Positions 1 to 58,772 of a DNA stretch of 64,000 nucleotides are shown piece after piece (the first letter of the stretch is position 1; each line of letters opens with the position of its first letter). The stretch is taken from positions 448,001 through 512,000 of the forward strand of contig OZ244719.1 of assembly GCA_965219095.1 (NCBI GenBank). Reading direction: 5' to 3'. The position numbers were made by a program, and so were the translations under genes. The notes beneath the pieces are model-generated. The model was not told the DNA's origin. It saw only the letters and a program-made list of their open reading frames with translations, and searched no databases. Source of the stretch: Bdellovibrionales bacterium (GTDB lineage: Bacteria > Bdellovibrionota > Bdellovibrionia > Bdellovibrionales > UBA1609).

Positions 1-1543
1 CTTGGTTTTAAATCTTCAAACAAACCATAAAAACCCTTTGGAAGTTTATCAGAGTGACGTTGATTTTCTTCCTCCATTTTGATTCTAAACTTGGGTTATA
101 ACTGGAGAAAGGAGCATAAAAATTTTCTTTTGCCCCTATACATGGGGGCAGTGTCCCCATGTTGACCCCTAAATTGTAACTCAGTTAAGAAACCGACTTA
201 CTGTTAACTTAAGTCCTATGTATTTTGAGAACTTAAGCCTTTTGGAGATCTCTTCTGGAACCTTATGCTACAAAAGAATGTCGAATTATTTTTTGGAATT
301 GGTATTACTAAAAACTTTTGGTTTAAAGTGTTTGGCATTAATAATGCTTGCACTACTTCCTAAAGCTCGAATCACAAAAAGACCTTCTTTCTCAGCCTTT
401 CTAGCTGAACCTTGATTGAACTTAAGATAAGCTACAGCACCATAAATTATTTTATCTTTATACAAAGGAAGCATTTGTTTAAAGTTTTTTAATTTGTTTA
501 TAAAATGAGTTAAATCTTTTAGCCATAAGGTAGTCTTGACTTCTGTCACAACCACTTCACTGCCATTAACTACAATAATGTCGAATTCAAAAGGCTCATC
601 ATTCCATATCCCGGAAGACTCTCGAGAAATACTCTGCACTTCAATGTTTCTTTCTTGAAGAAGTTTAACTAAATCACCTTTTACCAGAGCCTCCATAAGC
701 TTTCCCCATTGACCTGTGAAAAGTTCGTCTAACTTTGCTATACGTTTATCAGACTTTATAAACTGACGATCGGTCTCAAGTTTTGAGTCTTTTAACAAAC
801 GCTCTGTTTCTTTGTGGGCTTTTGCGGTTTCTTTTTGAGATTCTTTGAGTTGGCGATCAGTCTCTTTTTGAGCTTTAGAGGTTTCTTTGAGTTGGCGATC
901 AGTCTCTTTTTGAGCTTTGGCATTCTCTTTTTGAGCTTTAGCGATTTCTTTTTGAGATTCTTTGAGTTGGCGGTCAGTCTCTTTTTGAGCTTTGGCATTC
1001 TCTTTTTGAGACTTTGCCAGTTCTTGAGTTTCTTTAGCAACAGCTTGAATCGAAGCCCATACAGCTTTAGGAATTGAATGATTGGTTTTTTTTAAAGACA
1101 TGCGGTTATAATAATATAAAAAAACTTTCTTTTCAAGTGATTTTAAGAGAATTTCTTTCAAATAGCCTCACTGCAACATCTCTCTCTAACCTACTGTAAT
1201 ATAACAGGAAAATAAGAAAGTACCAGAAAGATGTCGCTAGAGATAATACAACAATTAAATCCTGGCTTTCAAAAGTAAGTACAAAAGAAATTAAAGTTTG
1301 TTTTTAATCAAAACTATCGTGATTCTCATATGCGTTCTTGTACGGAGTTTTGTCGTGATCAACTAGGTTCAATGTAGGGGAAAAGTCTTAACATTCGGGA
1401 ATAGATGGGTAGGTTAATTTATTATTTTCTTTTTGTTTTTTAGTGATTCTGCAAACTTACAAAAGTTTACAAATCAATTTATAGGAATTCTTGCAGCAGT
1501 TGCCATTCCTGCATTCGATGGGTTTAGAAAAAAAGCACGAAGC
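1..1543. repeat. Inverted repeat of 26807-28349 (distal end of a small element plus pilin core); may extend beyond window start
   Basis: Position p maps to 28350-p; identical ORF translations (286..1161 vs 27189..28064); identity ends at the AGT/GGT codon of the pilin. Confidence 0.95.
286..1101 (-). CDS. Coiled-coil heptad-repeat protein with C-terminal PD-(D/E)XK-like domain (DUF3782-like)
   Basis: KAQKETDRQLKE repeats, then EFDIIVVNG..VTEVK; ATG at 1101 preferred over TTG at 1161. Confidence 0.75.
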   Translation of the reverse strand: MSLKKTNHSIPKAVWASIQAVAKETQELAKSQKENAKAQKETDRQLKESQKEIAKAQKENAKAQKETDRQLKETSKAQKETDRQLKESQKETAKAHKETERLLKDSKLETDRQFIKSDKRIAKLDELFTGQWGKLMEALVKGDLVKLLQERNIEVQSISRESSGIWNDEPFEFDIIVVNGSEVVVTEVKTTLWLKDLTHFINKLKNFKQMLPLYKDKIIYGAVAYLKFNQGSARKAEKEGLFVIRALGSSASIINAKHFKPKVFSNTNSKK

Positions 1544-1894
1544 AGTGAAGCTAAAACTAACTTAGGGGCTCTTTATACAGCAGAAAAAGCCTACTTTTAT
1601 GAAGGTGATAAATATTCAGAAGTCCTAGCTACTATAGGATTTGAGGAACCTACTGGAACACGCCACTATGCTGTTGGATTTAAAGCTACTTGTGCTACGG
1701 GTAGTTCTGCTGAATGTTACCCATCAACTGCCGGCAGCACCACCACCAAAATTACTGCGATTGCAGGGAAAACCGGGACAACCTGTGAGCTAAACTCTGC
1801 AGGTGATGAATTCATAGCTTGTGCTGAAGGAGAAACAGCTTCGACAAATTCCAACTGGCAAATTAATCATGATAAAAGTTTGAGTCCACTATAA
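1481..1894 (+). CDS. pilA: Type IV major pilin 3' cassette C1 (no leader, presumably silent)
   Basis: IGILAAVAIPAFDGFRKKARSSEAKTNL pilin alpha-1 helix, 4 Cys, no GFxLIEL upstream. Confidence 0.9.
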   Translation: MGILAAVAIPAFDGFRKKARSSEAKTNLGALYTAEKAYFYEGDKYSEVLATIGFEEPTGTRHYAVGFKATCATGSSAECYPSTAGSTTTKITAIAGKTGTTCELNSAGDEFIACAEGETASTNSNWQINHDKSLSPL

Positions 1895-1913
1895 AATGCT
1901 TAAACTTCATTTT

Positions 1914-1942
1914 AAAACCCCTCCCTTTTTTGGAGGGGTTTT
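1914..1942. terminator. Bidirectional intrinsic terminator between C1 and integrase
   Basis: AAAACCCCTCC-loop-GGAGGGGTTTT. Confidence 0.85.
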
Positions 1943-2020
1943 TCTTTTCTTAACTCACAAAATCCAAGCTAAAAAAACCCATTCATTTTGCTTTTTGAAG
2001 TGGTTTTAAATCTTTACAAT

Positions 2021-3223
2021 TCAACTGCTAGGATCACTTTCCCTTATCCTTAATGAGGACTCATTTACAGTCTTTTGAGGGTGTGTAAGTGATTTTGTAA
2101 GTGATTTCGATTCGTACATGCTAGCTGTTCTTTCTGCCATATCAGAATTTATTAAAGCTACCGCTTTAGCATACCTTTGAGTCATAGCTTGATCTGTATG
2201 CCCAAGACTTGCTTGCACAGCGGAAAGACTTTTTGTCGCCATAAGTGCCATTGTGGCATAAGTATGACGGCAAATATGAGTCCCTCTCCAAGGAAGATTG
2301 CAGGCCTTAAAGGACTTATCAAAAGCCCAGCGAATGCTTGTATAAGACACAATTTCACCTTCTCTTGAATGAAAGACTAAGGGATTTTCGGGAGACTCAC
2401 TTTTCATAACCCTTAACAACTCCACAAGTCTCTCTGGAAGAACCAAAAGCCTGTTAGATGCTTTCGTTTTAGTACTCTCACAGAGAGTTATTTTGTTACC
2501 TCCCCAATCAGCTGTCCTTACCACACGTACAAACTTTTCTTCAAAGACAACTTCTTTCCACAAAAGCCCACAAGCTTCACTCACTCTAGCTCCTGTTAAA
2601 ATCATAAACTTTGCCAGTCTATAATAAACAGGGTTAGATATTTTCTGAAGCTTTTGAAGCCAAAGCTGTATTTCTTCTGGTCTAGCAAAGTAGTCAGGTC
2701 GTCTTAGTTTTTGAGTTGTCTCGTAGCAAATGTCTCTATGCATTTTCACTACAGGAACAACAAAGCTTGGATCAACGTAATTTCTCCACCAGTTTAGAAC
2801 AGCTACAAGTCGCCTAAACTCTGTTTTAAAACTCTGTCTTTGTCTACACTTCTTAGTTTTCTTTTGAAACCAAGAAATCCAAAGGCTTATCTCCTTTGCC
2901 TTTAAGTCTAACATCTTGACTTTATTTAAGGGGCTGTTAACTGAAAGATTTTTCAGATTCAATAAGATTTTTCTCTGGCTGGAAGCTCTCAGTTTAGGCA
3001 GATACTCTTTGATGTACTTTTCTACACAATCGCAAAAAAGCAATTCTTTAAGTTCTTTTTCTTCTATAGTTTCACCTTTTTCAAGGCGATCTTTTTCTCT
3101 ATCATGCCAAATGTAAGCTTGAGTTTTGTTTTCAAAAACTTTACTCGAAAGCCTCACTCCTCTGACATACACTTGAGCTTGATAGACGTTCTTTTTTTTT
3201 CTTTTAATTTTAGTTACAGACAT
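2021..3223 (-). CDS. Tyrosine integrase (type A)
   Basis: TGARVSE, HICRH and LGH..MTQRY catalytic motifs; 400 aa with N-terminal arm-binding-like region. Confidence 0.95.
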   Translation of the reverse strand: MSVTKIKRKKKNVYQAQVYVRGVRLSSKVFENKTQAYIWHDREKDRLEKGETIEEKELKELLFCDCVEKYIKEYLPKLRASSQRKILLNLKNLSVNSPLNKVKMLDLKAKEISLWISWFQKKTKKCRQRQSFKTEFRRLVAVLNWWRNYVDPSFVVPVVKMHRDICYETTQKLRRPDYFARPEEIQLWLQKLQKISNPVYYRLAKFMILTGARVSEACGLLWKEVVFEEKFVRVVRTADWGGNKITLCESTKTKASNRLLVLPERLVELLRVMKSESPENPLVFHSREGEIVSYTSIRWAFDKSFKACNLPWRGTHICRHTYATMALMATKSLSAVQASLGHTDQAMTQRYAKAVALINSDMAERTASMYESKSLTKSLTHPQKTVNESSLRIRESDPSS

Positions 3224-19952: not shown

Positions 19953-20285
19953 AGCCGAATTCACTCTTTGGTAAGTTATCCATAGCTCTTTTCATAAAGA
20001 GATGGAGTCCAAAGACTTTGGTGTTGACACTATAGGATAAACATGTCCTTAGGAGTTCGTTAGTTAATAAATGCTTGCGAACTAACGTATTCTTTTGAAC
20101 TCTTTTCATCAAATTATTTTTATTTCCTCAATTTCATGTGTGATCTATAGGTGATCAATAATTAAAATGTGGGTACTATCGAGAAGTTTCAGGAAAATCA
20201 AGGTGCTTACAGTAATGGATAAGTTATTTATATTTATTTATTTTTTACTGATTCCAACAACATAGCAGATCTCTTTTAGCCGATT

Positions 20286-20705
20286 ATAGGAATTCTTGCA
20301 GCAGTTGCCATTCCTGCATTCGATGGGTTTAGAAAAAAAGCACGAAGCGGTGAAGCTAAAACTAACTTAGGCGCTCTTTATACAGCAGAAAAAGCTTTTA
20401 GTTATGAGCACTCAGGCTACTGTGCTAGTCTTGGAACAATAGGTTTTGAAGAACCCCAAGGAACACGCCACTACGCTATTGGCTTTCATTCTACAGGTAA
20501 CAAAGCTAACTCAGCAGTTACAAATTGTACTGTTACAGGAGAAAATTATGACTCTAATGGTGGAGGTACCCCTATTACTGCTATAACGGGTACATCATGT
20601 AAAGTAGACCCTGTAGACAAATTTATAGCTTGTGCTGAAGGAGAAATGGCTTCAACAAATTCCAACTGGAAAATTGATGATGAGAAAGTAATAGGTCAGC
20701 TATAA
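20286..20705 (+). CDS. pilA: Type IV pilin 3' cassette C2 (no start codon; absent from the ORF track)
   Basis: Manual translation IGILAAVAIPAFDGFRKKARSGEAKTNLGALYTAEKAFSYEHSGYC...FIACAEGEMASTNSNWKIDDEKVIGQL*; in-frame TAG at 20277. Confidence 0.9.
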   Translation: MGILAAVAIPAFDGFRKKARSGEAKTNLGALYTAEKAFSYEHSGYCASLGTIGFEEPQGTRHYAIGFHSTGNKANSAVTNCTVTGENYDSNGGGTPITAITGTSCKVDPVDKFIACAEGEMASTNSNWKIDDEKVIGQL

Positions 20706-20724
20706 AATACTTAAACTCCACTTT

Positions 20725-20752
20725 AAAACCCCTCTCTTAAAGAGGGGTTTTT
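20725..20752. terminator. Bidirectional intrinsic terminator
   Basis: AAAACCCCTCT-loop-AGAGGGGTTTT. Confidence 0.85.
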
Positions 20753-20855
20753 CTTTTTTCCTCACAAAATCCAAGCTAAAAAAACCCACTCATTTTGCTT
20801 TTTGAAGTGATTTTAGGAGTGATTTTTAACTCCTATTTTTCCAGCTTGCTAGTAT

Positions 20856-22058
20856 TCATTTCACTTCCAAAATTTCTTTGCCTTTAAGTTTAAGAGGTGA
20901 AGCTTTGAAGCTTGTTTCTGAAAGTTGGTTTAAACTTTCTAATTCATACATCTGAGCTGTTTTTTCCGCCATATCCGAGTTAATGAGAGCTACCACTTTC
21001 GCATACCTTTGAGTCATAGCTTGATCCTTATGTCCAAGACTTGCTTGGACAGCTGAGAGGCTCTTTGTGGCCATCAAAGCCATTGTGGCATAAGTATGAC
21101 GGCAAATGTGAGTTCCTCTCCAAGGAAGTCCGCAAGCTCTAAAAGACTTATCAAAAGCCCAGCGAATGGTCGTATAAGGCACAATTCCACCTTCCATTGA
21201 ATGAAAGACTAAGGGGTTTTTGGAATGTTTCTTTATGGCTTTTAACATCTCTATAAGTTTATCAGGAAGAGTAAGCACTCTAACCGAGGTCTTTGTCTTT
21301 GTTGATTCCCTAATCTGAGGAACATCTAAAGCCCAATCAGCTGTTCGAACCACTCTTGCAAACTTGTTTCTAAAATCAACTTCTTTCCACATAAGTCCAC
21401 ACGCTTCACTTACTCTCGCTCCTGTTAAAATCATAAACTGGGCTAAGTGGTAGTAAACAGGATTAGAGATCTTTTCAAGCTCAGAAAGCCACTTTCTAAT
21501 CTCTTCAGGTTTAGCAAAGTAATCAGGCCTTTTGATTTTTGAAGGCCTCTGATGTTGATAGCACCTGTTTCTATGTCCTTGGACAATGGGAAAGGTAAAG
21601 CTAGGATCAATGTTGTTCCTCCACCAATGAAGAACTGAGCCTAAACGTCTTAACTCCATTTTAAAAGAGTGACGTTGATTTTTGCACTTTTGCTTCTTAA
21701 AAAGCCATTCAATCCAATGATCTATACTGATGTGATGTAAGTTTGACATTCTAACTTTTGCTAAAGGACTGTTAAGTAAGAATTTTTGGCATATGTTTTG
21801 AATTTTCTTTTGACTGCTAGCTCTTAAAGAAACAACATACTCTTTAAGATATCTTTTTACACAATCTTCAAAGAAAATCTCCTCTCTTTCTTGTGGAAGA
21901 AAGTTAGTTCCATGAAAAAATCGTTGCTTTTGTTTTTCTTCCCATAGAATAGCTTCCGTCTTTGTTGGAAAAGACTTGGATTTGACACGAACTCCTCTAA
22001 CATACACTTGAGCATAATAGACAGTTTTATTTTTTCCTTTTCTTTTTGTTATCGACAT
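20856..22058 (-). CDS. Tyrosine integrase (type B)
   Basis: TGARVSE, HICRH and LGH..RY motifs; paralogue of type A. Confidence 0.95.
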   Translation of the reverse strand: MSITKRKGKNKTVYYAQVYVRGVRVKSKSFPTKTEAILWEEKQKQRFFHGTNFLPQEREEIFFEDCVKRYLKEYVVSLRASSQKKIQNICQKFLLNSPLAKVRMSNLHHISIDHWIEWLFKKQKCKNQRHSFKMELRRLGSVLHWWRNNIDPSFTFPIVQGHRNRCYQHQRPSKIKRPDYFAKPEEIRKWLSELEKISNPVYYHLAQFMILTGARVSEACGLMWKEVDFRNKFARVVRTADWALDVPQIRESTKTKTSVRVLTLPDKLIEMLKAIKKHSKNPLVFHSMEGGIVPYTTIRWAFDKSFRACGLPWRGTHICRHTYATMALMATKSLSAVQASLGHKDQAMTQRYAKVVALINSDMAEKTAQMYELESLNQLSETSFKASPLKLKGKEILEVK

Positions 22059-22306
22059 GATTTCTCCTTTTGTTGAAGCCATTTCTCTAACTTATCATTC
22101 GGGAAATAGACGTTTCGGCCTATTTTCAAGAAAGGGATTTTTCTCATAGACATCCAATTACGGATGGTCTTAGGAGAAATTTCCAAAAACTCCGAAAGCT
22201 CTCTAAGGTTTATTAAATTGTCAAAGAACAGGCCCTTTTTTTGAGGGCGAATAGTGTTCTCTAAGCTACTATTTTTTTTGATTGGTTTCAATTCTTTTTT
22301 ATCCAT
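22049..22306 (-). CDS. Excisionase-like HTH protein
   Basis: ELSEFLEISPKTIRNWMSMRKIPFLKIG; overlaps int start. Confidence 0.85.
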   Translation of the reverse strand: MDKKELKPIKKNSSLENTIRPQKKGLFFDNLINLRELSEFLEISPKTIRNWMSMRKIPFLKIGRNVYFPNDKLEKWLQQKEKSCR

Positions 22307-22630
22307 TTTTATTTCTCCTTTTAAAATATGGCGAAGAAGCTTAAAAAGCTCCCTCATTTGGTTTCTTCTAAGAACTCTGACTTTTCCTCACTGAATATGG
22401 TGAATTTACGCACTCAAAAAAGTGTTGTAAATTTTACTTTTCTTGCTTTGCATTATGTAACTCCTTTCCTTTTCGATTTGTTATTTGTTTTTTGACCTTT
22501 TTTTTACTCCTTTCTGAGCCATTAAAAAAACTAAAGCTAAACTCAAAAAAACAAAAATTTTTTAACCTGATAGAGAAAATTTTTAATTTAAAAGTTCTAA
22601 AAATTTTCTCTATTTTTTCCTCCTCCCACA

Positions 22631-22792
22631 CCCCCCTTTCCTCTTCCCACATCTATACACCCAACTCTGTGGTACCGTGACCACCCTCTCCCATACTAAA
22701 AAAAGTATGAGCGGGAGAGGGTGGTCACGGTGAAAACCGAAGGTTTTAGCAGAGTTGGGTGTATAAAGACAAAGGGAAAAGGAAAGGGGGGG
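22631..22792. other. Long nested hairpin (small-element type)
   Basis: TATACACCCAACTCTG/CAGAGTTGGGTGTATA and ACCGTGACCACCCTCTCCC/GGGAGAGGGTGGTCACGGT stems. Confidence 0.85.
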
Positions 22793-22857
22793 CATGCAAG
22801 ACATGTTTTCAGCACTATAAGAAAATTCCAGAATTTTTTTAAAACTACTCATAAAGC

Positions 22858-23127
22858 TCACTCCTTTAAGTTAAAAATTTGAAACAAATCTTGTGAAGTT
22901 TTGATCTTATCAATGAGTACAGCCTGACCTACTTTTAAGTTCTTAAAAACATCAGGTTCGCTCTTCATTTTTTTGGTCTCCAAAAGATTCCCTAAGCCTG
23001 TTTTTATAGCACTCCCTTGAAGAATTTGGCTTTGAGCTTTTAGGCTTACAAGGTCTTGAGATTCTTCTTCTATATTCATAAGAAGCCTTAAATTCTTTTT
23101 TTGTTTTTTGTACTGTTTAAATTTCAT
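22858..23127 (-). pseudogene. Internally deleted coupling-protein remnant
   Basis: LKAQ..IL joined to KTGLGNL..DVFKNLKVGQAVLIDK, matching parts of 48517..50112. Confidence 0.7.
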
Positions 23128-23981
23128 GTCTATATGATCTTGATTTGAAGGTGTTTTGCGTTTTTGAGTTCAAAAAATGTTCATCAGTGATAAGAGAAAT
23201 GGATTTTTGAACAAAGTCTTTTGGGTTTATTTTCTTAGCATAAGAGCTTTGATGAGCTTTTTTTAAAAGATCTTTTAGTTTTAAAAAAGTACGTTTTTCA
23301 AGAATAAGACGTGCTACTTTCTTCTTAACTTTTATGCCTTTTCTTTTTGTGTCTTTATTTAATTTATTTCTTTTCACAAATAAACCTTTCTTTTTTATTC
23401 TTTTAATTTCTAACTTAAGTGATAGTTTTTTATTTTTTTTTTAACCCTTTAGCTTAAGAGTTTTTAAAAACCCTGAAATAGGGGTCAGGCAGGTTTTTTA
23501 AATTTGCAAAAGATAGCTAAAAAATAAATAATTTCAATAAGTTATAACGCTTAAAAATATTTTTTCACTGTGGAGTTCTCATCATCAATTCATCACTTGT
23601 TTTTACTCCCTTTTTTGTTTTTTAAAAGAGTCTTTTTCCTTTTTTTAAAAACTACAATCTCTCTTCTCTAAAATGGGCTAAGCTCATTAAATTTTTATCC
23701 ATGAAATCCTCAAACAGGCTATAAAAATCTTAGAAGGGCTATTAAAAAAAAAGACTTTTTTCTTCATCCATTAAGCTATTTCTTCTTCTTTTTTTAAAAA
23801 AAATGTATAAAACAGCTAAATTTCAGGTTTTGAAAGTAGCTTTTTAAAGCTCTTTGAAGACGATTTTTTGACCTGTAGCTACATAGGATTTGAACCCTGT
23901 AAAAACTCTTTTTTATCTTTTAGAGATATAACATTTTCTGTCTATGGCCTCCTTTTCTTTTATGAAGCGGTTTTTTTAACT

Positions 23982-24194
23982 TCAAGGGTTTTGGCATGGA
24001 TATTCTTTTTTTATTTCTTCGAACAAATAGAGCTGATCTTGACCGGACATGGAAAATTTCCCCCTCACTATAGGGGAGGTGCTAACCCCCATGGGGGTTA
24101 AATTCCTTCTAAGTGATTGAATTTCTTGGTTTTTTTGTTTTTTAGCTTCTGAACTGGAAATGTTTAATTTTTTAGAAATCTTTCGTTCTGTCAA
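23982..24194 (-). pseudogene. Possible sigma-70 region 4-like HTH fragment
   Basis: TERKISKKLNIS..K..IQSLRRNL; related stop-interrupted sequence at ~54195-54300. Confidence 0.3.
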
Positions 24195-24806
24195 GCCTTC
24201 ATAGAGACCATTTGAATCACACTTTTTTTTTACTTGAAAGTAACTGAGAGTAGATTTTTTTAAGAAGCTGACTTAAAAAACTCATCTTTTAAAGCTGCTT
24301 TTGGATTTTCTTTTTGGCACTTCTTAAACCTCACATCGATACAATCCTGATTAGAAAGTGTTTCATCTCTTAAGCTCAAATAGGTGATCCTTTGGTATAG
24401 GAGAAAGGGCTTTTTTGAAAATATCTTTGGCTTTGATTTTTCTACTATAAGGGATTTTATGGGATTTTACTAAAAGCTCTTTTAATTTAAAAAAGCTCCA
24501 TTTAACTTCTCAAATTAGAGCCCCCTCTTTACGATCGGTCAGAAAGCTTATGGAGGCTTTAGTACAAGGTAAGCTAGAGGGTGAGAGTCAATTGATTTAA
24601 TGTGCCTAACTTTTAGCCTAAGAAAGAAAATAAAAGTAGCTAAGAAGATAGGAAGTAACAACTTAAAATATGGAAGAAGATAGAGTTTTTACTTAGCGAT
24701 CGGAAAAAGACAGTAGAAGTTAGAAGCAAAAAACTTTCCAACAATTTGTTAACTTAAGCCTTTTGGAGATATCTTCCGTAACCTTATGCTATAAAAGAAT
24801 GTCGAA

Positions 24807-25496
24807 TTATTTTTTGGAATTGGTATTACTAAAGTTTTTTGGTTTAAAGTGTTTGGCATTAATAATACTTGCACTACTTCCTAAAGCTTGAATCACAAAA
24901 AGACCTTCTTTCTCAGCCTTTCTAGCTGAACCTTGATTGGCCTTAAGATAAGCTACAGCACCATAAATTATTTTATCTTTATACAAAGGAAGCATTTGTT
25001 TAAAGTTTTTTAATTTGTTTATAAAATGAGTCAAATCTTTTAGCCATAAGGTGGTCTTGACTTCTGTCACAACCACTTCACTGCCATTAACTACAATAAT
25101 GTCAAATTCAAAAGGCTCATCATTCCATACCCCGGAAGACTCTTGAGAAATACTCTGCACTTCAATGTTTCTTTCTTGAAGAAGTTTAACTAAATCACCT
25201 TTTACCAGAGCCTCCATAAGCTTTCCCCATTGACCTATGAAAAGTTCGTCTAACTTTGCCATACGTTTATCAGACTTTTTAAACTGACGATCGGTCTCAA
25301 GTTTTGACTCTTTTAACAAACGCTCTGTTTCTTTGTGGGCTTTTGCGGTCTCTTGTTGAGCTTTAGAGGTTTCTTTGAGTTGGCGGTCAGTCTCTTTTTG
25401 AGCTTTTGCCAGCTCTTTAATTCCCTTAAAAGCTCCTTTAATAGATTCCTGAAGAGCTTTGGGAATCTGGTTGTTTTTTGTTACTTTTATAGCCAT
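24807..25496 (-). CDS. Coiled-coil plus PD-(D/E)XK-like protein (DUF3782-like), short-repeat allele
   Basis: C-terminal domain nearly identical to 286..1101; different N-terminus. Confidence 0.75.
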   Translation of the reverse strand: MAIKVTKNNQIPKALQESIKGAFKGIKELAKAQKETDRQLKETSKAQQETAKAHKETERLLKESKLETDRQFKKSDKRMAKLDELFIGQWGKLMEALVKGDLVKLLQERNIEVQSISQESSGVWNDEPFEFDIIVVNGSEVVVTEVKTTLWLKDLTHFINKLKNFKQMLPLYKDKIIYGAVAYLKANQGSARKAEKEGLFVIQALGSSASIINAKHFKPKNFSNTNSKK

Positions 25497-25894
25497 ATTA
25501 TTTATAGTAGTATAAAAAAACTTTCTTTTCAAGTGGTTTTAAAAAAAAAATTCTTTTAAATAGCCTCACTGCGACATCTCTCTCTAACCTACTGTAAAAA
25601 CAAGAAAATAAGAAAGTGCCAGATAAAAAAGTGCCAGAAAGATGCCGCTAGAGATAATACAACAATTAAATCCGCTTTCAAAAGTAATACAAAAGCTAAG
25701 CTCTTATAAAACTACAAGTAACTTATCACACACTTAGTTTTTTTAGAGTGAGTTCAGAGTAAAAAATTAAGGAACCTTAGAGAACTTTCAGGAAATTTTA
25801 AGATAGATAGTGACGGCTAAGTTGTTAATTTTATTATTTCCTTTTAAATTTTTTAATGATTCTAAGAACTTACAAAAGTTCACAGACCATTTTT

Positions 25895-26341
25895 ATAGGA
25901 ATTCTTGCAGCATTTGCCATTCCTGCATTCGATGGGTTTAGAAAAAAAGCACGAAGCAGTGAAGCTAAAACCAATTTAGGGGCTCTTTTTACTGCACAGA
26001 AAGCTTTTTTCTATGAACACTCAACTTATTGTGCTCATCTAGCTGATGTAGGTTTTTCTGTAACCGGAGCAGACACATATTACACCATTGGTTTTGGTGC
26101 GAACTCTGGTGGTAGTAATAGTGGTTGTACCGCAGGTACTGCACCTGACTGGAAATCAGATGGCAGTAAAGCAACTGCACAAGCTCCTGAAGCAGCTTGT
26201 GATGCTGACACAACAGATTTTACTGCTGGTGCAGTCGGTCCAAAGGATGGTACTGACCTTATAGACGTAGATAGTAACTATCGTATGGACCAAACAAAGA
26301 AGCTTAACTCCAATAGTATTTTCGACAAAGCTGGTTGTTAA
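25895..26341 (+). CDS. pilA: Type IV pilin 3' cassette C3 (terminal cassette of left array)
   Basis: IGILAAFAIPAFDGFRKKARSSEAKTNL; 4 Cys, one C-terminal. Confidence 0.9.
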   Translation: MGILAAFAIPAFDGFRKKARSSEAKTNLGALFTAQKAFFYEHSTYCAHLADVGFSVTGADTYYTIGFGANSGGSNSGCTAGTAPDWKSDGSKATAQAPEAACDADTTDFTAGAVGPKDGTDLIDVDSNYRMDQTKKLNSNSIFDKAGC

Positions 26342-31315: not shown

Positions 31316-31401
31316 AAAAAACCAAGCTATTGTTTTCATATATGCACATTTTTAAGAATCTGTTTGAAAGAAATACACACTTGAATGCTGTTTGAATGTT
31401 G

Positions 31402-31530: not shown

Positions 31531-31634
31531 CTTTTCAAAAAAAAACAAGAAAAACCTTTTTTTTCATTTAAAACTTTATTGTAGCAAAAGGTTTTATAAA
31601 AGAGTCCTTTTTATAAAACCAAAAAGAAAGGAGT

Positions 31635-32370: not shown

Positions 32371-32436
32371 AGCTTTATGAGTAGTTTTAAAAAAATTCTG
32401 GAATTTTCTTATAGTGCTAAAAACATGTCTTGCATG

Positions 32437-32600
32437 CACCCCCTTTCCTTTTCCCTTTGTCTTTATACACCCAACTCTGCTAAAACCTTCGGTTTTCACC
32501 GTGACCACCCTCTCCCGCTCATACTTTTTTTAGTATGGGAGAGGGTGGTCACGGTACCACAGAGTTGGGTGTATAGATGTGGGAAGAGGAAAGGGGGGTG
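32437..32600. other. Long nested hairpin (small-element type)
   Basis: Inverted copy of 22631-22792. Confidence 0.85.
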
Positions 32601-32921
32601 TGAGAGGAGGAAAAAATAGAGAAAATTTTTAGAACTTTTAAATTAAAAATTTTCTCTATCAGGTTAAAAAATTTTTGTTTTTTTAAGTTTAACTTGAGTT
32701 TTTTTAATGGCCGAGAAAGGAGTAAAAAAAAAGGTCAAAAAACAAATAACAAATCAATCATGAAAGGAGTAGCATAATGCAAAGCAAGAAAAGTAAAATT
32801 TACGACACTTTTTTGAGTGCGTAAATTCATCATATTCAGTGAGGAAAAGTCAGAGTTCTTAGAAGAAACCAAATGAGGAAGTTTTTTAAGCTTCTTCGCC
32901 ATATTTTGAAAGGAGAAAAAA

Positions 32922-33179
32922 ATGGATAAAAAAGAATTGAAACCAATTAAAAAAGGTAGTAGTTTAGAGAACACTATTCGCCCTCAAAAAAAGGGCCTGT
33001 TCTTTGACAATTTAATAACCGTAGAGGAATTAGCCTTAGCGTTTGGGCTGTCTCCTAGAACGATTAAAAATTGGGTGAGTTTAAGACAAATCCCCTTTAT
33101 TCAGTTCAGAAGAAGGACTTACTTTCTTAAAGACAGTATCCATAGATGGCTTCAACAAAAGGAGAAATCATGTCAATAA
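32922..33179 (+). CDS. Excisionase-like HTH protein
   Basis: ITVEELALAFGLSPRTIKNWV; overlaps int start. Confidence 0.85.
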   Translation: MDKKELKPIKKGSSLENTIRPQKKGLFFDNLITVEELALAFGLSPRTIKNWVSLRQIPFIQFRRRTYFLKDSIHRWLQQKEKSCQ

Positions 33180-34345
33180 CCAAACGTAAAAGGAAAAATA
33201 AAATAACATATCAAGCAGAAATTTATGTAAGAGGAATTCGTCTGAAAGCAAAAAGCTTTCAAACAAAAACAGAAGCCTGTATATGGCACGATAAGGAAAA
33301 AAAACGTCTTCAAGAAGGAAGAGTTTCTCTTCAAGAAGAGTTAAGAGAACTTTTCTTTGAAGACTGTGTGAGAAGGTATCTTAAAGAGTATGTTCCTACT
33401 TTAAGAGATTCCAGTCAAAAGAAGATTCAACTTCTTTGCGAGAGGTTTTTTCTACAAAGTCCTTTAGCAAAAACAAAAATGTCAGATATAGACCATGTCA
33501 GTATTGACACTTGGATTGACTGGCTTTTTAGAAGCTTTAAAAACACTGTCAACCGCCATTCTTTTAGAATAGAGTTAAGGCGTCTTGGCTCTGTTCTTCA
33601 CTGGTGGAGAAACTACCTTGATCCAAGCTTTAGCTTTCCTATTGTTCGTGGTCATAGAAATCGGTGTTATGTGAAGAAGCGAGAATCTAAGGTGAAAAGG
33701 CCAGATTACTTTGCTAAACCTGAAGAGGTGAGGGCTTGGCTTAACGAACTTAAGAAGATTCAAAACCCTGTTTATTACCGTTTAGCTCAGTTTATGATTT
33801 TAACAGGAGCGAGAGTAAGTGAAGCTTGTGGACTTATGTGGAGTGAAATTGATTTTAAGAATCGTTTTGCAAGAGTTGTTAGAACAGCTGACTGGTCTTC
33901 TGAAAAACCTCAAATTCTAGAAACCACAAAGACTAAGACTTCTGTAAGAGTTTTAACTCTTCCTGAAAAGCTCATAGAGCTTTTGTATGAAATGAAAGAG
34001 GAATCTAATAATCCTCTTGTGTTTTACTCTTCAGAAGGAAAGGTCGTTCCTTACACTACCATTCGTTGGGCCTTTGATAAGTCTTTTAAGACCTGCAATC
34101 TTCCTTGGAGAGGAACTCATATTTGCCGTCATACTTATGCCACAATGGCTTTAATGGCGACAAAAAGCCTCTCAGCTGTCCAAGCAAGTCTTGGGCATAA
34201 GGATCAAGCTATGACTCAAAGGTATGCAAAAGTGGTGGCTCTCATTAACTCGGATATGGCAGAAAAAACAGCTCAGATGTATGAAATGAACTCTTTAGGT
34301 TCATCTCCATCACGACAGATCACGACGTCTTTACAGACAAAATGA
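33170..34345 (+). CDS. Tyrosine integrase (type C)
   Basis: TGARVSE, HICRH and LGH..RY motifs; AAGGAG RBS before ATG at 33170. Confidence 0.95.
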   Translation: MSITKRKRKNKITYQAEIYVRGIRLKAKSFQTKTEACIWHDKEKKRLQEGRVSLQEELRELFFEDCVRRYLKEYVPTLRDSSQKKIQLLCERFFLQSPLAKTKMSDIDHVSIDTWIDWLFRSFKNTVNRHSFRIELRRLGSVLHWWRNYLDPSFSFPIVRGHRNRCYVKKRESKVKRPDYFAKPEEVRAWLNELKKIQNPVYYRLAQFMILTGARVSEACGLMWSEIDFKNRFARVVRTADWSSEKPQILETTKTKTSVRVLTLPEKLIELLYEMKEESNNPLVFYSSEGKVVPYTTIRWAFDKSFKTCNLPWRGTHICRHTYATMALMATKSLSAVQASLGHKDQAMTQRYAKVVALINSDMAEKTAQMYEMNSLGSSPSRQITTSLQTK

Positions 34346-34550
34346 ACTTTAGGATCAAAAGGATACTGGTAGTTGAATTTTAAAATTTTTTAAAATTTAA
34401 AAAAAGAATTCTAGCAGGAACACTTGGAATGAAAAACTCACGACGGAAATCACGACTTCTCACTAAAATAGCTAAGATATCACTCATAAAGTAGAGCGTG
34501 AAAGAAGTTCTAGCAGTGGAAAGTTTAAGGGATTTTTTGAAAGTAAAAAT

Positions 34551-34580
34551 TAAAACCCTCTCTAAAAAAAGAGGGTTTTA
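34551..34580. terminator. Bidirectional intrinsic terminator
   Basis: TAAAACCCTCT-loop-AGAGGGTTTTA. Confidence 0.8.
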
Positions 34581-34605
34581 AGAAAAGTTTTTTAAACTTA
34601 GAAAG

Positions 34606-35034
34606 TTAATATGCTGTTAATATTTTGTCTTGCTTGATTTCCCATTTCTGAACACTGGTTTGGCCTGAGTTCCCCTCTGCACAAGCTGTAAATTTCTGGG
34701 GATTCACACTATTATCTATTTTACATGCTGCTCTTGCAATAGCTGAAGTTTTCGTGCCTACAGTATTTTCATGTGCCAGATCACTTGCTCCACCTGTCAC
34801 ACACCCTGACGGTAGTGTTGTAAGTGCAGTATTAAAGCCAATTGTGTAATGGGTTGCTCCATCAGGTTTATCAAAACCTATGATGTTAAGATTATGGCAA
34901 TACCCTGTGCTTTCATACTGAAAAGCTTTTTCTGCTGTATAAAGAGCCCCTAAGTTAGTTTTAGCTTCACCGCTTCGTGCTTTTTTTCTAAACCCATCGA
35001 ATGCAGGAATGGCAACTGCTGCAAGAATTCCTAT
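34606..35034 (-). CDS. pilA: Type IV pilin 3' cassette C5 (only partly in the ORF track)
   Basis: Manual translation IGILAAVAIPAFDGFRKKARSGEAKTNLGALYTAEKAFQYESTGYCHNL..., in frame with ORF 34606..34800. Confidence 0.9.
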   Translation of the reverse strand: MGILAAVAIPAFDGFRKKARSGEAKTNLGALYTAEKAFQYESTGYCHNLNIIGFDKPDGATHYTIGFNTALTTLPSGCVTGGASDLAHENTVGTKTSAIARAACKIDNSVNPQKFTACAEGNSGQTSVQKWEIKQDKILTAY

Positions 35035-35413
35035 AATCGGCTAAAAGAGATCTGCTATGTTGTTGGAATCAGTAAAAAATAAATGAATATAAATAACTTA
35101 TCCATTACTGTAAGCACCTTGATTTTCCTGAAACTTCTCGATAGTACCCACATTTTAATTATTGATCACCTACAGATCACACATAAAATTAAGGAAATAA
35201 TTTATACATACTCATATGAATTACCGCTCTATCCAAGCTTAAATTTCTCTTATAAGTTTTTCTTAGAGGGAAGATTTTATGGAAGAAAGAATTAATTTAA
35301 AAGAGAAAATACAGCTTTGTCGAGAGGAGAGTTTGAACAAAAAGCTTCATCTTTGCTTCCTCCAAACTTGAAGTCCTTCTTCTTTTGTAAATTCTTTGCT
35401 ATACCTGTTGGCG

Positions 35414-37000: not shown

Positions 37001-37003
37001 AAA

Positions 37004-44810: not shown

Positions 44811-44812
44811 AT

Positions 44813-52774: not shown

Positions 52775-53164
52775 AAATTGATTTGTAAACTTTTGTAAGT
52801 TTGCAGAATCACTAAAAAACAAAAAGAAAATAATAAATTAACCTACCCATCTATTCCCGAATGTTAAGACTTTTCCCCTACATTGAACCTAGTTGATCAC
52901 GACAAAATTCCGTACACGGACGCATATAAAAATCACGATAGTTCTAAAACAAACTTTAATTTCTTTTGTACTTACTTTTGAAAGCCAGGATTTAATTGTT
53001 GTATTATCTCTAGCGACATCCTTTCTGGTGCTTTTTTATCTGGTACTTTCTTATTTTCCTGTTACGTTACAGTAGGTTAGTGAGGGATATCGCAGTGAGG
53101 CCATTTGAAAGAAATTCTCTTAAAATCACTTGAAAAGAAAGTTTTTTTATATTATTATAATTGT

Positions 53165-53917
53165 ATGTCTTTAAAAAAACTCAATCATTCAATTCCTAAA
53201 GCTGTATGGGCTTCGATTCAAGCTGTTGCTAAAGAAACTCAAGAACTAGTAAAGTCTCAAAAAGAGAATGCCAAAGCTCAAAAAGAGACTGATCGCCAAC
53301 TCAAAGAATCTCAAAAAGAAATCGCTAAAGCTCAAAAAGAGACTGATCGCCAACTCAAAGAATCTCAAAAAGAAATCGCTAAAGCTCAAAAAGAAATCGC
53401 TAAAGCTCAAAAAGAGACTGATCGCCAACTCAAAGAATCTCAAAAAGATACTAATCAACGTATAGCACAACTCAACGAACTTTTCACAGGTCAATGGGGG
53501 AAGCTTATGGAAGCCTTTGTAAAAGGTGATTTAGTTAAACTTCTTCAAGAAAGGAACATCGATGTTAATGATATATGCTCTAATAGAGAGAAGACCTTTG
53601 AAGGTCAAAAATATGAGTTTGATATCATAGCCATTAATGGAAAAGAAACAGTAGCTGTGGAAGTAAAGACTACTTTACGGCTGAAAGACTTAACTTATTT
53701 TTTAAAAAAGTTAAAAACCTTTAAAAAGATGTTTCCTGAATATGAAGATAAGAAAATATACGGAGCTATGGCTTTTATAAAAGTGAATGAAGGAGCTGAT
53801 AGGAGAGCTGAAAAAGATGGTTTATTTGTGATTCAAGCTGTAGGAGATAGTGGAAGCATTATTAATGCCAAACACTTTAAACCAAAGATCTTTTGTAATA
53901 ACAATTCCAAAAAATAA
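53165..53917 (+). CDS. Coiled-coil plus PD-(D/E)XK-like protein (DUF3782-like), divergent C-terminal allele
   Basis: N-terminus as in 27249..28064; EFDIIAING..VEVK domain differs. Confidence 0.75.
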   Translation: MSLKKLNHSIPKAVWASIQAVAKETQELVKSQKENAKAQKETDRQLKESQKEIAKAQKETDRQLKESQKEIAKAQKEIAKAQKETDRQLKESQKDTNQRIAQLNELFTGQWGKLMEAFVKGDLVKLLQERNIDVNDICSNREKTFEGQKYEFDIIAINGKETVAVEVKTTLRLKDLTYFLKKLKTFKKMFPEYEDKKIYGAMAFIKVNEGADRRAEKDGLFVIQAVGDSGSIINAKHFKPKIFCNNNSKK

Positions 53918-54753
53918 TTCGATATTCTTTTGTAGCATAAGGTTCTGGAAGAGATCTCCAAAAGGCTTAAGTTAACAGTAAATCAGTTTCTTAACTGAGT
54001 TACAGCTTTCTAAGCTAACGTAAGGTGGCAGAAGGGGGTTAAGCTTATTACAAACGTCAAATTAAAAAAACAAATTCTTTTCTATGGAAAAAGCCTCAAA
54101 AGGTACAAACTCAGTTTCTTTTTGCTCCACTTAAATAAAACTCTTAAAAGGCTTATTTCAAAGCAAAGAAAAGTCCTCAAAATGTTCTTTTAGGATGGTT
54201 TCACTGAAGAACAAATAGGACGAAAGCTCAGCCACTCTTGAAGCACAATTAAAAACATAAAAGCTCAAGCATTCAAGTCACTTAGGAAGAATTTAGAGGT
54301 CAACATGGGGACACTGTCCCCATGTATAGGGGCAAAAGAAAATTTTTATGCTCCTTTTTCCAGTTATAAACCCAAGTTTAGAATCAAGATGGAAGAAGAA
54401 AATCAACGTCACTCTGATAAACCTCCAAAGGGTTTTTATAGTTTGTTTGAAGATTTAAAACAAGCTTTCACATCACTTTGACCGATCGTAAAGAGGGGAA
54501 GCTCCAATTTGAAAAGTTAAATGGAGCTTTTTTAAAAGATGTGAGTTGTGTCTAATCAAAGGGGTAAAAGTGTGTCTAGAATTGGACAAAACCAAAGAGA
54601 TGCCAAAGCTTAAAAGCACTTAAGATCATTTCATTTTTTCTTATTCAGAAAAAATGTTAAGAAAGTGTCTGACCTCCCTAAAAGCTTTTTTTCATTCTAT
54701 CTTAAGATTTTCTTATTGGGGACTATTTTCTGCTTTTAACTACTTATAAAAAA

Positions 54754-54943
54754 TGGCTCCTCCAGGGAATCTGTGGGTAAAAAGTAGTAGAAATCCCCCA
54801 AAAGAGCTCATATTAATCAAAGCAAGAGTAAGACATCCTGTCTTGTATTTTTGAGTTCTTTGAGGCCTTACTGACCTCTATCACCTCCGGTGATTGAACT
54901 CAAAAACATTCATTTTATTTGCTGTATTACATTAAAATCTTAA
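54754..54943 (+). mobile_element. Orphan ISL3 left end
   Basis: Near copy of 37424-37612 without a transposase. Confidence 0.75.
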
Positions 54944-55353
54944 AGAAAGAGAAGAAAAGGTGCGGAATGAAAAAATAAGAATCCTGAGGGTTCCTAGAAA
55001 GACCTTTTTTAAATTAAAAGAGCAGTTAGGTAATATAAAGTAAAGATATTGATCTGTTTTCTTTAAATTTCTCTAAAAACCAAGCTATTGTTTTCATATA
55101 TGCACATTTTTAAGAATCTGTTTGAAAGAAATACACACTTGAATGCTGTTTGAATGTTGCAGATCTGTTACAAATTTGCATATTTGTTACAAATGTAACA
55201 GATCTGTTACAAATGTATCGGATTCAGCAAATTTGTAACAAATATGCAACTTTTCAAAAAAAAACAAGAAAAACCTTTTTTTTCATTTAAAACTTTATTG
55301 TAGCAAAAGGTTTTATAAAAGAGTCCTTTTTATAAAACCAAAAAGAAAGGAGT

Positions 55354-56089
55354 ATGTATGAAGCAAAAAACAAAAAAAGAGTTCTTATGAAGATAGAAGC
55401 ACCTCAAAACCTTGTAAGCTTAAAAGCTCAAATCCAGACCCTTACTTCTCCAGAATTTAGAAACTCCTCTATACATGAAGAAAAAGAAATCGATCTCCTG
55501 GATGTTATGAAAAAAAATCAAATAGCCTATTTCCAGTTGAATTTAAACAGCTATGGTTTTTTAGGTAAGAAAATCGGTAAAATTCTAGTTCAAGATCTAA
55601 AGGTTATAAGCTCTCAGATTCAATCAGGACAAGTGGATTTTAAGCCTTTACTTTTAGGGGTCTTGATTGATGAATTTGGATCTTTTGCTACACCTGATTT
55701 TTCAGATTTTTTAAAGCAAGTAAGATCTGCTGGTACAGGAGTTCACTTATTTTGCCAAGGCTTAGCTGATTTAAATGTTGTAAGTCAGAGTTTTAGCAAT
55801 CAAGTGTTGGGAAGTGCGGCCACTAAAATCATACTTCGACAAGATGTGAAGAGGACTCTCGAAAAATGGGCTTTTACAGCTGTCACTAGGGGCACTGTAG
55901 GTAGGAGTTTTCAGGTCAGTGAACGCATTCTGGGGAACTTAAAAAAACAGGCTTAGGGAATCTTTTGGAGACCAAAAAAATGAAGATCGAACATGATGTT
56001 TTTAAGAGCTTAAAAGTAGGTCAGGCTGTACTCATTGATAAGATCAAAACCTCACAAGATTTGTTTCAAATTTTTAGCTTAAAGGAGTG
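55354..56089 (+). pseudogene. C-terminal part of coupling protein, frameshifted
   Basis: Copy of 31635-32370. Confidence 0.8.
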
Positions 56090-56155
56090 AGCTTTATGAG
56101 TAGTTTTAAAAAAATTCTGGAATTTTCTTATAGTGCTAAAAACATGTCTTGCATG

Positions 56156-56319
56156 CACCCCCTTTCCTTTTCCCTTTGTCTTTATACACCCAACTCTGCT
56201 AAAACCTTCGGTTTTCACCGTGACCACCCTCTCCCGCTCATACTTTTTTTAGTATGGGAGAGGGTGGTCACGGTACCACAGAGTTGGGTGTATAGATGTG
56301 GGAAGAGGAAAGGGGGGTG
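56156..56319. other. Long nested hairpin (small-element type)
   Basis: Copy of 32437-32600. Confidence 0.85.
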
Positions 56320-56640
56320 TGAGAGGAGGAAAAAATAGAGAAAATTTTTAGAACTTTTAAATTAAAAATTTTCTCTATCAGGTTAAAAAATTTTTGTTTT
56401 TTTAAGTTTAACTTGAGTTTTTTTAATGGCCGAGAAAGGAGTAAAAAAAAAGGTCAAAAAACAAATAACAAATCAATCATGAAAGGAGTAGCATAATGCA
56501 AAGCAAGAAAAGTAAAATTTACGACACTTTTTTGAGTGCGTAAATTCATCATATTCAGTGAGGAAAAGTCAGAGTTCTTAGAAGAAACCAAATGAGGAAG
56601 TTTTTTAAGCTTCTTCGCCATATTTTGAAAGGAGAAAAAA

Positions 56641-56898
56641 ATGGATAAAAAAGAATTGAAACCAATTAAAAAAGGTAGTAGTTTAGAGAACACTATTCGC
56701 CCTCAAAAAAAGGGCCTGTTCTTTGACAATTTAATAACCGTAGAGGAATTAGCCTTAGCGTTTGGGCTGTCTCCTAGAACGATTAAAAATTGGGTGAGTT
56801 TAAGACAAATCCCCTTTATTCAGTTCAGAAGAAGGACTTACTTTCTTAAAGACAGTATCCATAGATGGCTTCAACAAAAGGAGAAATCATGTCAATAA
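56641..56898 (+). CDS. Excisionase-like HTH protein
   Basis: Identical to 32922..33179. Confidence 0.85.
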   Translation: MDKKELKPIKKGSSLENTIRPQKKGLFFDNLITVEELALAFGLSPRTIKNWVSLRQIPFIQFRRRTYFLKDSIHRWLQQKEKSCQ

Positions 56899-58064
56899 CC
56901 AAACGTAAAAGGAAAAATAAAATAACATATCAAGCAGAAATTTATGTAAGAGGAATTCGTCTGAAAGCAAAAAGCTTTCAAACAAAAACAGAAGCCTGTA
57001 TATGGCACGATAAGGAAAAAAAACGTCTTCAAGAAGGAAGAGTTTCTCTTCAAGAAGAGTTAAGAGAACTTTTCTTTGAAGACTGTGTGAGAAGGTATCT
57101 TAAAGAGTATGTTCCTACTTTAAGAGATTCCAGTCAAAAGAAGATTCAACTTCTTTGCGAGAGGTTTTTTCTACAAAGTCCTTTAGCAAAAACAAAAATG
57201 TCAGATATAGACCATGTCAGTATTGACACTTGGATTGACTGGCTTTTTAGAAGCTTTAAAAACACTGTCAACCGCCATTCTTTTAGAATAGAGTTAAGGC
57301 GTCTTGGCTCTGTTCTTCACTGGTGGAGAAACTACCTTGATCCAAGCTTTAGCTTTCCTATTGTTCGTGGTCATAGAAATCGGTGTTATGTGAAGAAGCG
57401 AGAATCTAAGGTGAAAAGGCCAGATTACTTTGCTAAACCTGAAGAGGTGAGGGCTTGGCTTAACGAACTTAAGAAGATTCAAAACCCTGTTTATTACCGT
57501 TTAGCTCAGTTTATGATTTTAACAGGAGCGAGAGTAAGTGAAGCTTGTGGACTTATGTGGAGTGAAATTGATTTTAAGAATCGTTTTGCAAGAGTTGTTA
57601 GAACAGCTGACTGGTCTTCTGAAAAACCTCAAATTCTAGAAACCACAAAGACTAAGACTTCTGTAAGAGTTTTAACTCTTCCTGAAAAGCTCATAGAGCT
57701 TTTGTATGAAATGAAAGAGGAATCTAATAATCCTCTTGTGTTTTACTCTTCAGAAGGAAAAGTCGTTCCTTACACTACCATTCGTTGGGCCTTTGATAAG
57801 TCTTTTAAGACCTGCAATCTTCCTTGGAGAGGAACTCATATTTGTCGTCATACTTATGCCACAATGGCTTTAATGGCGACAAAAAGCCTCTCAGCTGTCC
57901 AAGCAAGTCTTGGGCATAAGGATCAAGCTATGACTCAAAGGTATGCAAAAGTGGTGGCTCTCATTAACTCGGATATGGCAGAAAAAACAGCTCAGATGTA
58001 TGAAATGAACTCTTTAGGTTCATCTCCATCACGACAGATCACGACGTCTTTACAGACAAAATGA
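56889..58064 (+). CDS. Tyrosine integrase (type C)
   Basis: Same protein as 33170..34345. Confidence 0.95.
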   Translation: MSITKRKRKNKITYQAEIYVRGIRLKAKSFQTKTEACIWHDKEKKRLQEGRVSLQEELRELFFEDCVRRYLKEYVPTLRDSSQKKIQLLCERFFLQSPLAKTKMSDIDHVSIDTWIDWLFRSFKNTVNRHSFRIELRRLGSVLHWWRNYLDPSFSFPIVRGHRNRCYVKKRESKVKRPDYFAKPEEVRAWLNELKKIQNPVYYRLAQFMILTGARVSEACGLMWSEIDFKNRFARVVRTADWSSEKPQILETTKTKTSVRVLTLPEKLIELLYEMKEESNNPLVFYSSEGKVVPYTTIRWAFDKSFKTCNLPWRGTHICRHTYATMALMATKSLSAVQASLGHKDQAMTQRYAKVVALINSDMAEKTAQMYEMNSLGSSPSRQITTSLQTK

Positions 58065-58282
58065 ACTTTAGGATCAAAAGGATACTGGTAGTTGAATTTT
58101 AAAATTTTTTAAAATTTAAAAAAAAGAATTCTAGCAGGAACACTTGGAATGAAAAACTCACGACGGAAATCACGACTTCTCACTAAAATAGCTAAGATAT
58201 CACTCATAAAGTAGAGCGTGAAAGAAGTTCTAGCAGTGGAAAGTTTAAGAGTTTTGAAGTAAAAAAAGACCTACTATAAATA

Positions 58283-58309
58283 AACCCCCCTTTTTCTAAA
58301 AAGGGGGTT
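58283..58309. terminator. Intrinsic terminator
   Basis: AACCCCCCTTTTT-loop-AAAAGGGGGTT. Confidence 0.75.
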
Positions 58310-58326
58310 CTAGAAAGGTTTTCAGA

Positions 58327-58770
58327 TTAAGTACAGTCAGCTCCTGCGCCATTTGATTTTAAAATTTTAAGATTATCCATCTGCCAATTTGTTCCAACAC
58401 TATCAAGCTTATTGCTTGTGTGATTTCCAAAAGCTCCAGCTTTGAAGGTTGTAGTTGTGTGTTCACATGCAGGTCCAGGAGCCCTTTTAGTGCCGGTAGC
58501 ATGAGTAGAGTCGTGTTTTGCAGCAGCAGCCGCTGTTGCTGGGCATGTTCCCACTACAGCACTCGCCTTAAATCCGATAGAAAAATATTGCGTTCCCTCG
58601 GGTTTTCCAAAACCTATCAAATCCAAGTTATTACAATAATCGCCTTGTTCATAAAAGTACGCTTTTTCTGCTGTATAAAGAGCCCCTAAGTTAGTTTTAG
58701 CTTCACCGTCTCGTGCTTTTTTTCTAAACCCATCGAATGCAGGAATGGCAACTGCTGCAAGAATTCCTAT
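58327..58770 (-). CDS. pilA: Type IV pilin 3' cassette C7 (only partly in the ORF track)
   Basis: Manual translation IGILAAVAIPAFDGFRKKARDGEAKTNLGALYTAEKAYFYEQGDYCNNL, in frame with ORF 58327..58626. Confidence 0.9.
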   Translation of the reverse strand: MGILAAVAIPAFDGFRKKARDGEAKTNLGALYTAEKAYFYEQGDYCNNLDLIGFGKPEGTQYFSIGFKASAVVGTCPATAAAAAKHDSTHATGTKRAPGPACEHTTTTFKAGAFGNHTSNKLDSVGTNWQMDNLKILKSNGAGADCT

Positions 58771-58772
58771 AA

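Follow-up and report, generated by a model that had tools for sequence, protein, structure and literature searches.

The host genome, that of a Bdellovibrionales bacterium, comprises 3.11 Mb on two contigs (C1 and C2) with a guanine-cytosine (GC) content of 34%, and the stretch of 64,000 nucleotides analysed here (C1:448001-512000, referred to as the window) contains most of a type IV pilin locus. Within the window, seven headless pilin cassettes (i.e., pilin 3′ parts) share a common core of about 111 bp, three of them on the + strand and four on the − strand. The whole locus spans about 95 kb, from C1:411277 to window position 58773, and includes two further cores of the left array outside the window (core A at C1:411346 and core B at C1:423988). 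In full, the left array reads pilin(A)-E1-B-E2-C-L1-D-S2-E, opposed by the right array F-S5-G-L6-H-S7-I, in which the letters A to I denote cores with their cassettes (Table 1). Each element is laid out as core, pilin 3′ cassette, terminator, convergent tyrosine integrase gene, excisionase-like gene, backbone, cargo and arm. All nine genomic occurrences of a 19-bp core word fall inside the pilin locus.

A preliminary description of this DNA had recognised two opposed arrays (L1-S2-C3 versus S7-L6-S5-C4), and the seven cores and their spacing bear this out. The alternation of small, large and small elements noted there agrees with the sizes found, whereas the integrase of S2 belongs to a third type (T) and not to type S. 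What had been taken for a partial small element at positions 1-1477 is in fact where a chimeric element of 25.5 kb (E2), with an L-type integrase, ends.

The expression site, suspected earlier to lie left of the window, was found as a complete pilin gene of 166 amino acids around core A (window position −36654), 36.7 kb to the left of the window. This gene has a prepilin leader, a ribosome-binding site and a terminator, and is followed by two elements before the window begins. Its 5′ end is single-copy in the genome; a second expression site was ruled out, as no orphan pilin 5′ end is present. All nine cassettes are open, in the same reading register, and encode four cysteines each, so that a constant 5′ pilin part stands beside several alternative in-frame 3′ ends, as in a shufflon. 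Past residue 40 the cassettes are 29-75% identical, the one exception being the fully identical pair A and G. The core shows a synonymous difference of 0.07, versus 0.61 for the next 30 codons, indicating that it is conserved as DNA. The intactness of the cassettes was also considered as proof of selection against insertion sequence (IS) hits, and rejected because the cassettes span too little DNA.

The position of the crossover could be read from arm ends elsewhere in the genome. Of 12 ectopic arm ends examined, two were cut short and set aside, and the other ten (10/10) ended exactly at the core edge. The right half-site GAATTCTT was matched at six or more of its eight bases at seven of these ten ends, compared to 7% of random positions, and the mean match was 6.1 versus 4.0 at random (with none of 100,000 resamples as high). 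Where the ectopic target was a repeat, its empty copies were already core-like. Together, the arm ends and half-site matches place the crossover at about TTATAGG, in codons 12-14 of the mature pilin, and the ectopic junctions back the earlier view of the cores as genuine recombination sites. The junctions also suggest a role of the same enzymes in rearranging the genome. GC skew flips sign repeatedly along both contigs, and rearrangement may be due in part to the ten ectopic arm junctions. Furthermore, a tenth cassette, ectopic and frameshifted, is present at C2:2315433-2317655, with an IntT remnant and with its core edge fused to a fragment of a beta-propeller repeat gene. At the outer end of the right array, the edge of core I is bordered by neither an arm nor a pilin 5′ end but by an internal piece of an IS-like gene, which reads TATAG at the join point in its intact copies; the join lies 3-4 bases off an exact exchange. 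The reciprocal product of this junction at 58775 was searched for in the genome and not found.

At the centre of the locus, C3 and C4 meet head to head. Both lack an integrase, as the preliminary description had it, and the hairpin that they share has a perfect stem whose folding is strong on either strand (z −5.1 and −6.0; 0/200 shuffles folded equally well). Cassettes E and F also have a common tract that is absent from the remaining cassettes, which are single and each carried on an element. The junction of C3, terminator and C4 was spanned by a single Logan contig in run X1 (25990-26774, 0 differences) and by one contig in run X3 (25959-26579), i.e., in two samples of one study, among the contigs listed from four runs that were compared with window positions 18500-38400. 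In total, six runs were listed, with no RNA run on record. Its presence inside single contigs of two samples argues for a real head-to-head arrangement and not a false join. Run X1 may be near the source of the window. The X3 contig differs by three letters and 12 gap positions, perhaps reflecting an in-frame cassette allele.

The window and its left flank together hold seven integrase genes of three types, i.e., S (three identical copies), L (three copies, 99% identical) and T. The types are 60-75% identical to one another (T versus S, 75%), and all three retain the residues R-K-H-R-H-Y, which we take to be the catalytic motif of tyrosine integrases. Every integrase is accompanied by an excisionase-like gene, of the TIGR01764 family as judged by the profile tested on the L copy. 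Integrase and excisionase adjoin the attachment (att) core with arm-type repeats on both sides, as in an integrative element, and behind every core lie a cassette and terminator, i.e., an attP carrying the displaced part of its target gene. The nearest named relatives of the integrases are 44-47% identical and stem from three loci in Bdellovibrionales metagenome-assembled genomes.

Three arm types precede the cores, namely X (at B, C, F and H), Y (at D and G) and Z (at E), and GTGAT-containing repeats occur both in the arms and behind the cassettes. The locus has 22 TCGTGAT heptamers, and 18 of them are situated in arm X (eight), behind IntS cassettes (nine) or behind B (one), a distribution of non-independent copies of a motif picked after inspection, which points to a pairing of arm X with IntS. 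IntL follows arm X at three junctions, but the alternative of a pairing between these two was rejected on the same heptamer. On sequence grounds, S elements would thus combine IntS with arm X, L elements IntL with arm Y, and S2 IntT with arm Z, and E2 is a fusion with an L-type start and an S-type end. No internal junction pairs an arm with a cassette of its own integrase type. This mismatch may explain why the elements alternate, since a matched junction would be an unstable attP. The cores are probably not interchangeable, their arm type limiting the possible partners.

The locus also bears traces of copying. The expressed cassette A and the 3.5 kb that follow differ from S5 by one base, the last 2,888 bp of E2 match the far end of S5 without a difference, and the L and S backbones are mosaics that differ by scattered substitutions. 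These features indicate recent copying by reintegration or homologous recombination; for the identity of A and G copying is needed, as neither inversion nor excision yields it.

A search of 301 genomes of the order detected the integrase family in 21 (counting G000), every one within the host's family. The comparison drew on chosen stretches with pilin or integrase genes from 15 further genomes. Five pilins of a sister genus (three loci in G201 and two in G002) are split and form inverted attL/attR pairs, a 5′ fragment, core and arm facing an inverted arm, core and headless cassette. Triple and double TGCGGTGAT repeats, a motif related to that in the arms of the present locus, lie on both arms of these split pilins, which form switches without an integrase, and TG-GGTGAT-type repeats occur at about −101, −90 and −80 and at about +140 to +186 (by chance, GTGAT is expected about once per 520 bp). 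In both G201 (L064 8649-11902) and G002 (L055 7383-13700), a family integrase and a pilin 5′ end are enclosed by inverted pilin cores, and G002 retains a headless copy of the 3′ part of its complete pilin at 99.7% identity. In a tree of 31 rows, IntS/L/T and the enzymes of G201/G002/G197 formed separate clades (each 100/100) on an unresolved backbone, which suggests, without proving, repeated recruitment. Headless cassettes also occur in G197, where the break codon is that of G201, and in G017, G255 and G006, at different codons. Only complete pilins were seen beside family integrases in the stretches read from G016 and G210. In these two genomes (L049-L053, and L056 and L082-L084, respectively), complete pilins repeatedly adjoin whole or 5′-truncated family integrases, and G210 has about ten pilins within 51 kb. 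No family integrase was found in G006, G024 or G027; alignment searches with the integrase gave no match in Joint Genome Institute (JGI) metagenomes or in viral contigs, nor did a core pattern search in metagenomes, and an index of other genomes contained nothing similar to the DNA of the locus. Pfam PF14245 had no match across 19 genomes, in which the controls were likewise silent.

Taking these data together, we consider it somewhat probable that the locus is a pilin-variation system assembled from integrative elements, in which the cassette expressed is the one next to the 5′ end. The complete pilin gene would supply the promoter, leader and first 12 mature residues, and each element would target codons 12-14, replacing the remainder of the pilin by a divergent version located behind the element's core. 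The founding structure was likely the C3/C4 segment, with two convergent headless pilins between inverted cores; in the simplest history, both cores of such a two-state pilin would then have collected elements, giving the mirror arrays. The expressed gene would presently be an S-type attL, with partner arm X-core sites in direct orientation at B and C and inverted attR sites at F and H. IntS and Xis acting on direct pairs would cause excision, exposing B or C, and acting on inverted pairs would flip 63.5 or 89 kb, such that F or H is expressed. Inversion would leave an attB and an attP, which integrase alone could flip back. Excision by Int and Xis, and reversal by Int alone, would follow lambda-type chemistry. 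Incoming elements and recombination between near-identical backbones would add and copy cassettes. From the present state, inversion could reach the cassettes of C4 and L6, and not directly those of S7 or S5. On a tentative view, the locus could further be an active, horizontally restocked shufflon, with mobile elements as cassettes that each import a pilin body and defence cargo, and with stored pilins reversibly reached by inversion and excision through the alternation of integrase specificities and the opposition of the two arrays. By the same reading, the integrase-less switches of the sister genus may perhaps be its domesticated end point, reached independently, which we put forward with reserve.

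Several observations weigh against such a system. Deletion and inversion between cores, as proposed in the preliminary description, agree with the recombination sites, the expression site and the cassette register, whereas the locus was seen in a single orientation: the read-derived data, which are k-mer contigs that break at the core and are unable to phase across it, gave no isoform that was inverted, excised or circular. The promoter scan upstream of the pilin gene was no better than in shuffles (5 versus 3.9), the right end is an IS scar and not a designed boundary, and pure inversion does not yield the identity of A and G or the mosaic backbones, for which reintegration or homologous recombination is required. 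All five sister-genus switches are in the off state, no on-state attP was found in the four of four genomes of that genus searched, and the sister-genus integrases form a separate clade and cut another pilin codon, so that the likeness is an analogy and not the same system. Contig joints that skip the IS66 element or a helix-turn-helix (HTH) pair were considered as new isoforms and rejected, as they match S7 and E1 as assembled, and joints between regions upstream of arms X and Z were not counted because they lie in shared repeats. In run X1, contig depth was 9.2 for A/G, 3.1 for C3/C4 and 231 for IS66 over about 68 copies, with low cover at 18500-19163; the hints herein of at least two copies of cassette A and of variable element content were not used, contig depth not being copy number.

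Part of this evidence would also suit passive accretion, in which the replacement 3′ ends just keep the target gene working, elements stacked at two cores or were turned over once by off-target recombination, and pilin change is one-way, through excision or fresh integration, with reversible inversion negligible. Replacement sequences in attP and tandem islands are already known (PMC10111431), sloppy recombination that leaves scars is evident both at the ten ectopic arm ends and at position 58775, where the IS fragment joins, and the genome is full of IS elements, with a single orientation of the locus observed. Nevertheless, the replacements are whole, strongly divergent pilin domains and not faithful copies, the matching inverted attR sites are intact, and sister genomes reduced the same geometry to integrase-less switches, making accretion alone unlikely. 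A store of silent cassettes, used by homologous recombination or gene conversion through the core and the 98-100% identical backbones, with integrases as mere delivery agents, would account for the copying around A, E2 and S5, the mosaic backbones, the low synonymous difference of the core, the tract restricted to C3/C4 and the headless copy in G002. We hold it improbable as the sole explanation, for the integrase crossover is precisely where identity starts, no cassette is without associated arm sites, and most pairs differ by whole cassettes and not by patches; the identity of A and G is also explicable by reintegration of an excised element, and this route can coexist with variation by integrative elements. 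As to an assembly artefact, in which arrays or duplicated S5 halves from different strains or isoforms were joined by the assembler, the two-contig assembly is metagenome-derived with many near-identical repeats, and no contig spans the whole locus. However, the head-to-head junction lies within single contigs of two samples, a separate cassette and separate cargo belong to each element, and scattered substitutions distinguish the backbones, so that we hold such an artefact very improbable.

The elements also carry cargo with possible roles in defence. That of E2 includes a Druantia type I system (DruA, DruD, DruE and a 948-amino-acid open reading frame (ORF); L001 3018-13710), that of L1 a type IIG restriction-modification (RM) pair, and that of L6 a ubiquitin-like operon. 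In L6, positions 42997-46907 encode a pentapeptide-repeat protein, multi-ubiquitin, E2, JAB-E1 and DUF6527 proteins in one operon that is probably anti-phage. No gene of another, four-gene operon in L6 (38997-41923) had a Pfam match. A type IV coupling protein (T4CP) is present in the L elements, intact in L6, and long imperfect palindromes near T4CP/xis genes (3983-4107, 31391-31539 and 50172-50296) are candidate transfer origins. No relaxase domain was found among the 50 ORFs scanned; elsewhere in the genome, there are one Replic_Relax gene and seven VirB4/TraG-type matches. IS elements are abundant genome-wide, IS66 amounting to about 68 copy-equivalents.

Table 1. Features of the pilin locus in the window and of related loci in other genomes (core start, first codon of the common pilin segment; sizes are core to core).
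Feature	Position	Strand	Details
Far end of chimeric element E2 (from core B)	1..1477	+	
E2 coiled-coil/nuclease-like ORF	286-1161	−	
E2 arm X	about 1310-1477		heptamer TCGTGAT at 1317, 1353
Core C and headless cassette C	1478..1894	+	core start 1478; 138 amino acids, 4 Cys; own terminator follows
Element L1	1478..20282	+	18,805 bp; IntL 2021-3223 (−); excisionase-like gene 3214-3492 (−); arm Y ~20120-20282
L1 T4CP gene			interrupted by IS630-type element (5350-6759)
L1 cargo			HKD-SNF2 11440-14715; type IIG RM 14718-18158
Core D and headless cassette D	20283..20705	+	core start 20283; 140 amino acids
Element S2	20283..25891	+	5,609 bp; IntT 20856-22082 (−); xis 22049-22357
S2 remainder			nuclease-like ORF 24807-25532; arm Z ~25722-25891
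C3 (core E, integrase-less cassette E)	25892..26341	+	core start 25892; 149 amino acids; C3–C4 980 bp
Bidirectional terminator-like hairpin common to C3/C4	26378..26410		14-bp stem, 5-nt loop
C4 (core F, integrase-less cassette F)	26429..26872	−	core start 26872; 147 amino acids; arm X in front
Element S5	26873..35037	−	8,165 bp; arm X 26873-27040; nuclease-like ORF 27189-28064
S5 remainder			IS66 ~29767-31316; IntS 33146-34345 (+); cassette G 34606-35037, core start 35037 (−)
Element L6	35038..52777	−	17,740 bp; arm Y 35038-35200; intact T4CP 48517-50112
L6 cargo			multi-ubiquitin/E2/JAB-E1 operon 44064-46907; pentapeptide protein
L6 integrase end			xis 50787-51065; IntL 51056-52258 (+); cassette H 52385-52777, core start 52777 (−); arm X fronts core H
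Element S7	52778..58773	−	5,996 bp; arm X 52778-52945; nuclease-like ORF 53105-53917
S7 remainder			IntS 56865-58064 (+); cassette I 58327-58773, core start 58773 (−)
Internal fragment of repeated IS-like transposase gene	58775..58958		8 other copies; abuts core I edge
Split pilins, G201	L079 5134-7077; L080 9712-11302; L081 13869-15441		
Split pilins, G002	L086 6599-8560; L087 5969-7245		
Headless cassettes, fixed break codons per lineage	L069, L070, L071 (G017); L088-L092 (G255); L074 (G006)		

Pilins serve as phage receptors and attachment organs. If the locus works as proposed, cells could exchange its store of eight distinct pilin bodies, each together with anti-phage cargo, which would amount to a new route of receptor switching. 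In the Neisseria pilE/pilS system, one expressed pilin is accompanied by many headless silent copies, and RecA-dependent conversion proceeds patchwise without att sites. Here, in contrast, att arms and integrases flank every cassette, while the identity of A and G and the mosaic backbones fit copying. The Moraxella bovis Q/I system has two states, a non-tyrosine invertase and no mobile elements; it is reported to vary pilin phase by inversion, as is proposed for the present locus.

Among integrative elements, an attP that restores the target gene is known for icd, tRNA genes and the fis phage-inducible chromosomal islands (PICIs), as are tandems at one site, and the attP identity blocks reach about 250 bp and preserve function (PMC10111431). 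In the elements described here, by comparison, the product is altered by 130-149 codons whose variable part is 29-75% identical, and the arrays occupy both orientations. The literature searched, with most subscription journals outside its coverage, gave no account of integrative elements supplying one distinct pilin body apiece, or of opposed arrays of such elements, and the accessible parts of PMC12378983 and PMC5903667 contain nothing on such an arrangement.

The closest parallels are to the IncI shufflons (pilV of R64, R721 and TP114, with Rci), which, as described in PMC9045228, have a tyrosine recombinase, a crossover of about 7 bp with a conserved right and a variable left arm, and segments carrying two convergent partial ORFs. 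Common to both are a constant 5′ pilin part, swappable 3′ ends and a tyrosine recombinase, and C3/C4, and C3/C4 only, formally equals a shufflon segment, i.e., two convergent partial ORFs between inverted crossover sites. Unlike the IncI shufflons, the locus is chromosomal, probably concerns the major pilin and swaps nearly the whole subunit; its cassettes ride on elements of 6-25 kb with integrase, excisionase, long arms and defence cargo, and it combines three integrase types with direct plus inverted sites, instead of one dedicated invertase in a compact cluster without excisionase. Its components are thus known separately, and by analogy it would work like a shufflon despite departing from the single-invertase plan. 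With the sister-genus switches, it may represent a series from mobile integrase to domesticated invertase, joining gene-replacing integrative elements and programmed surface variation, which are usually kept apart.

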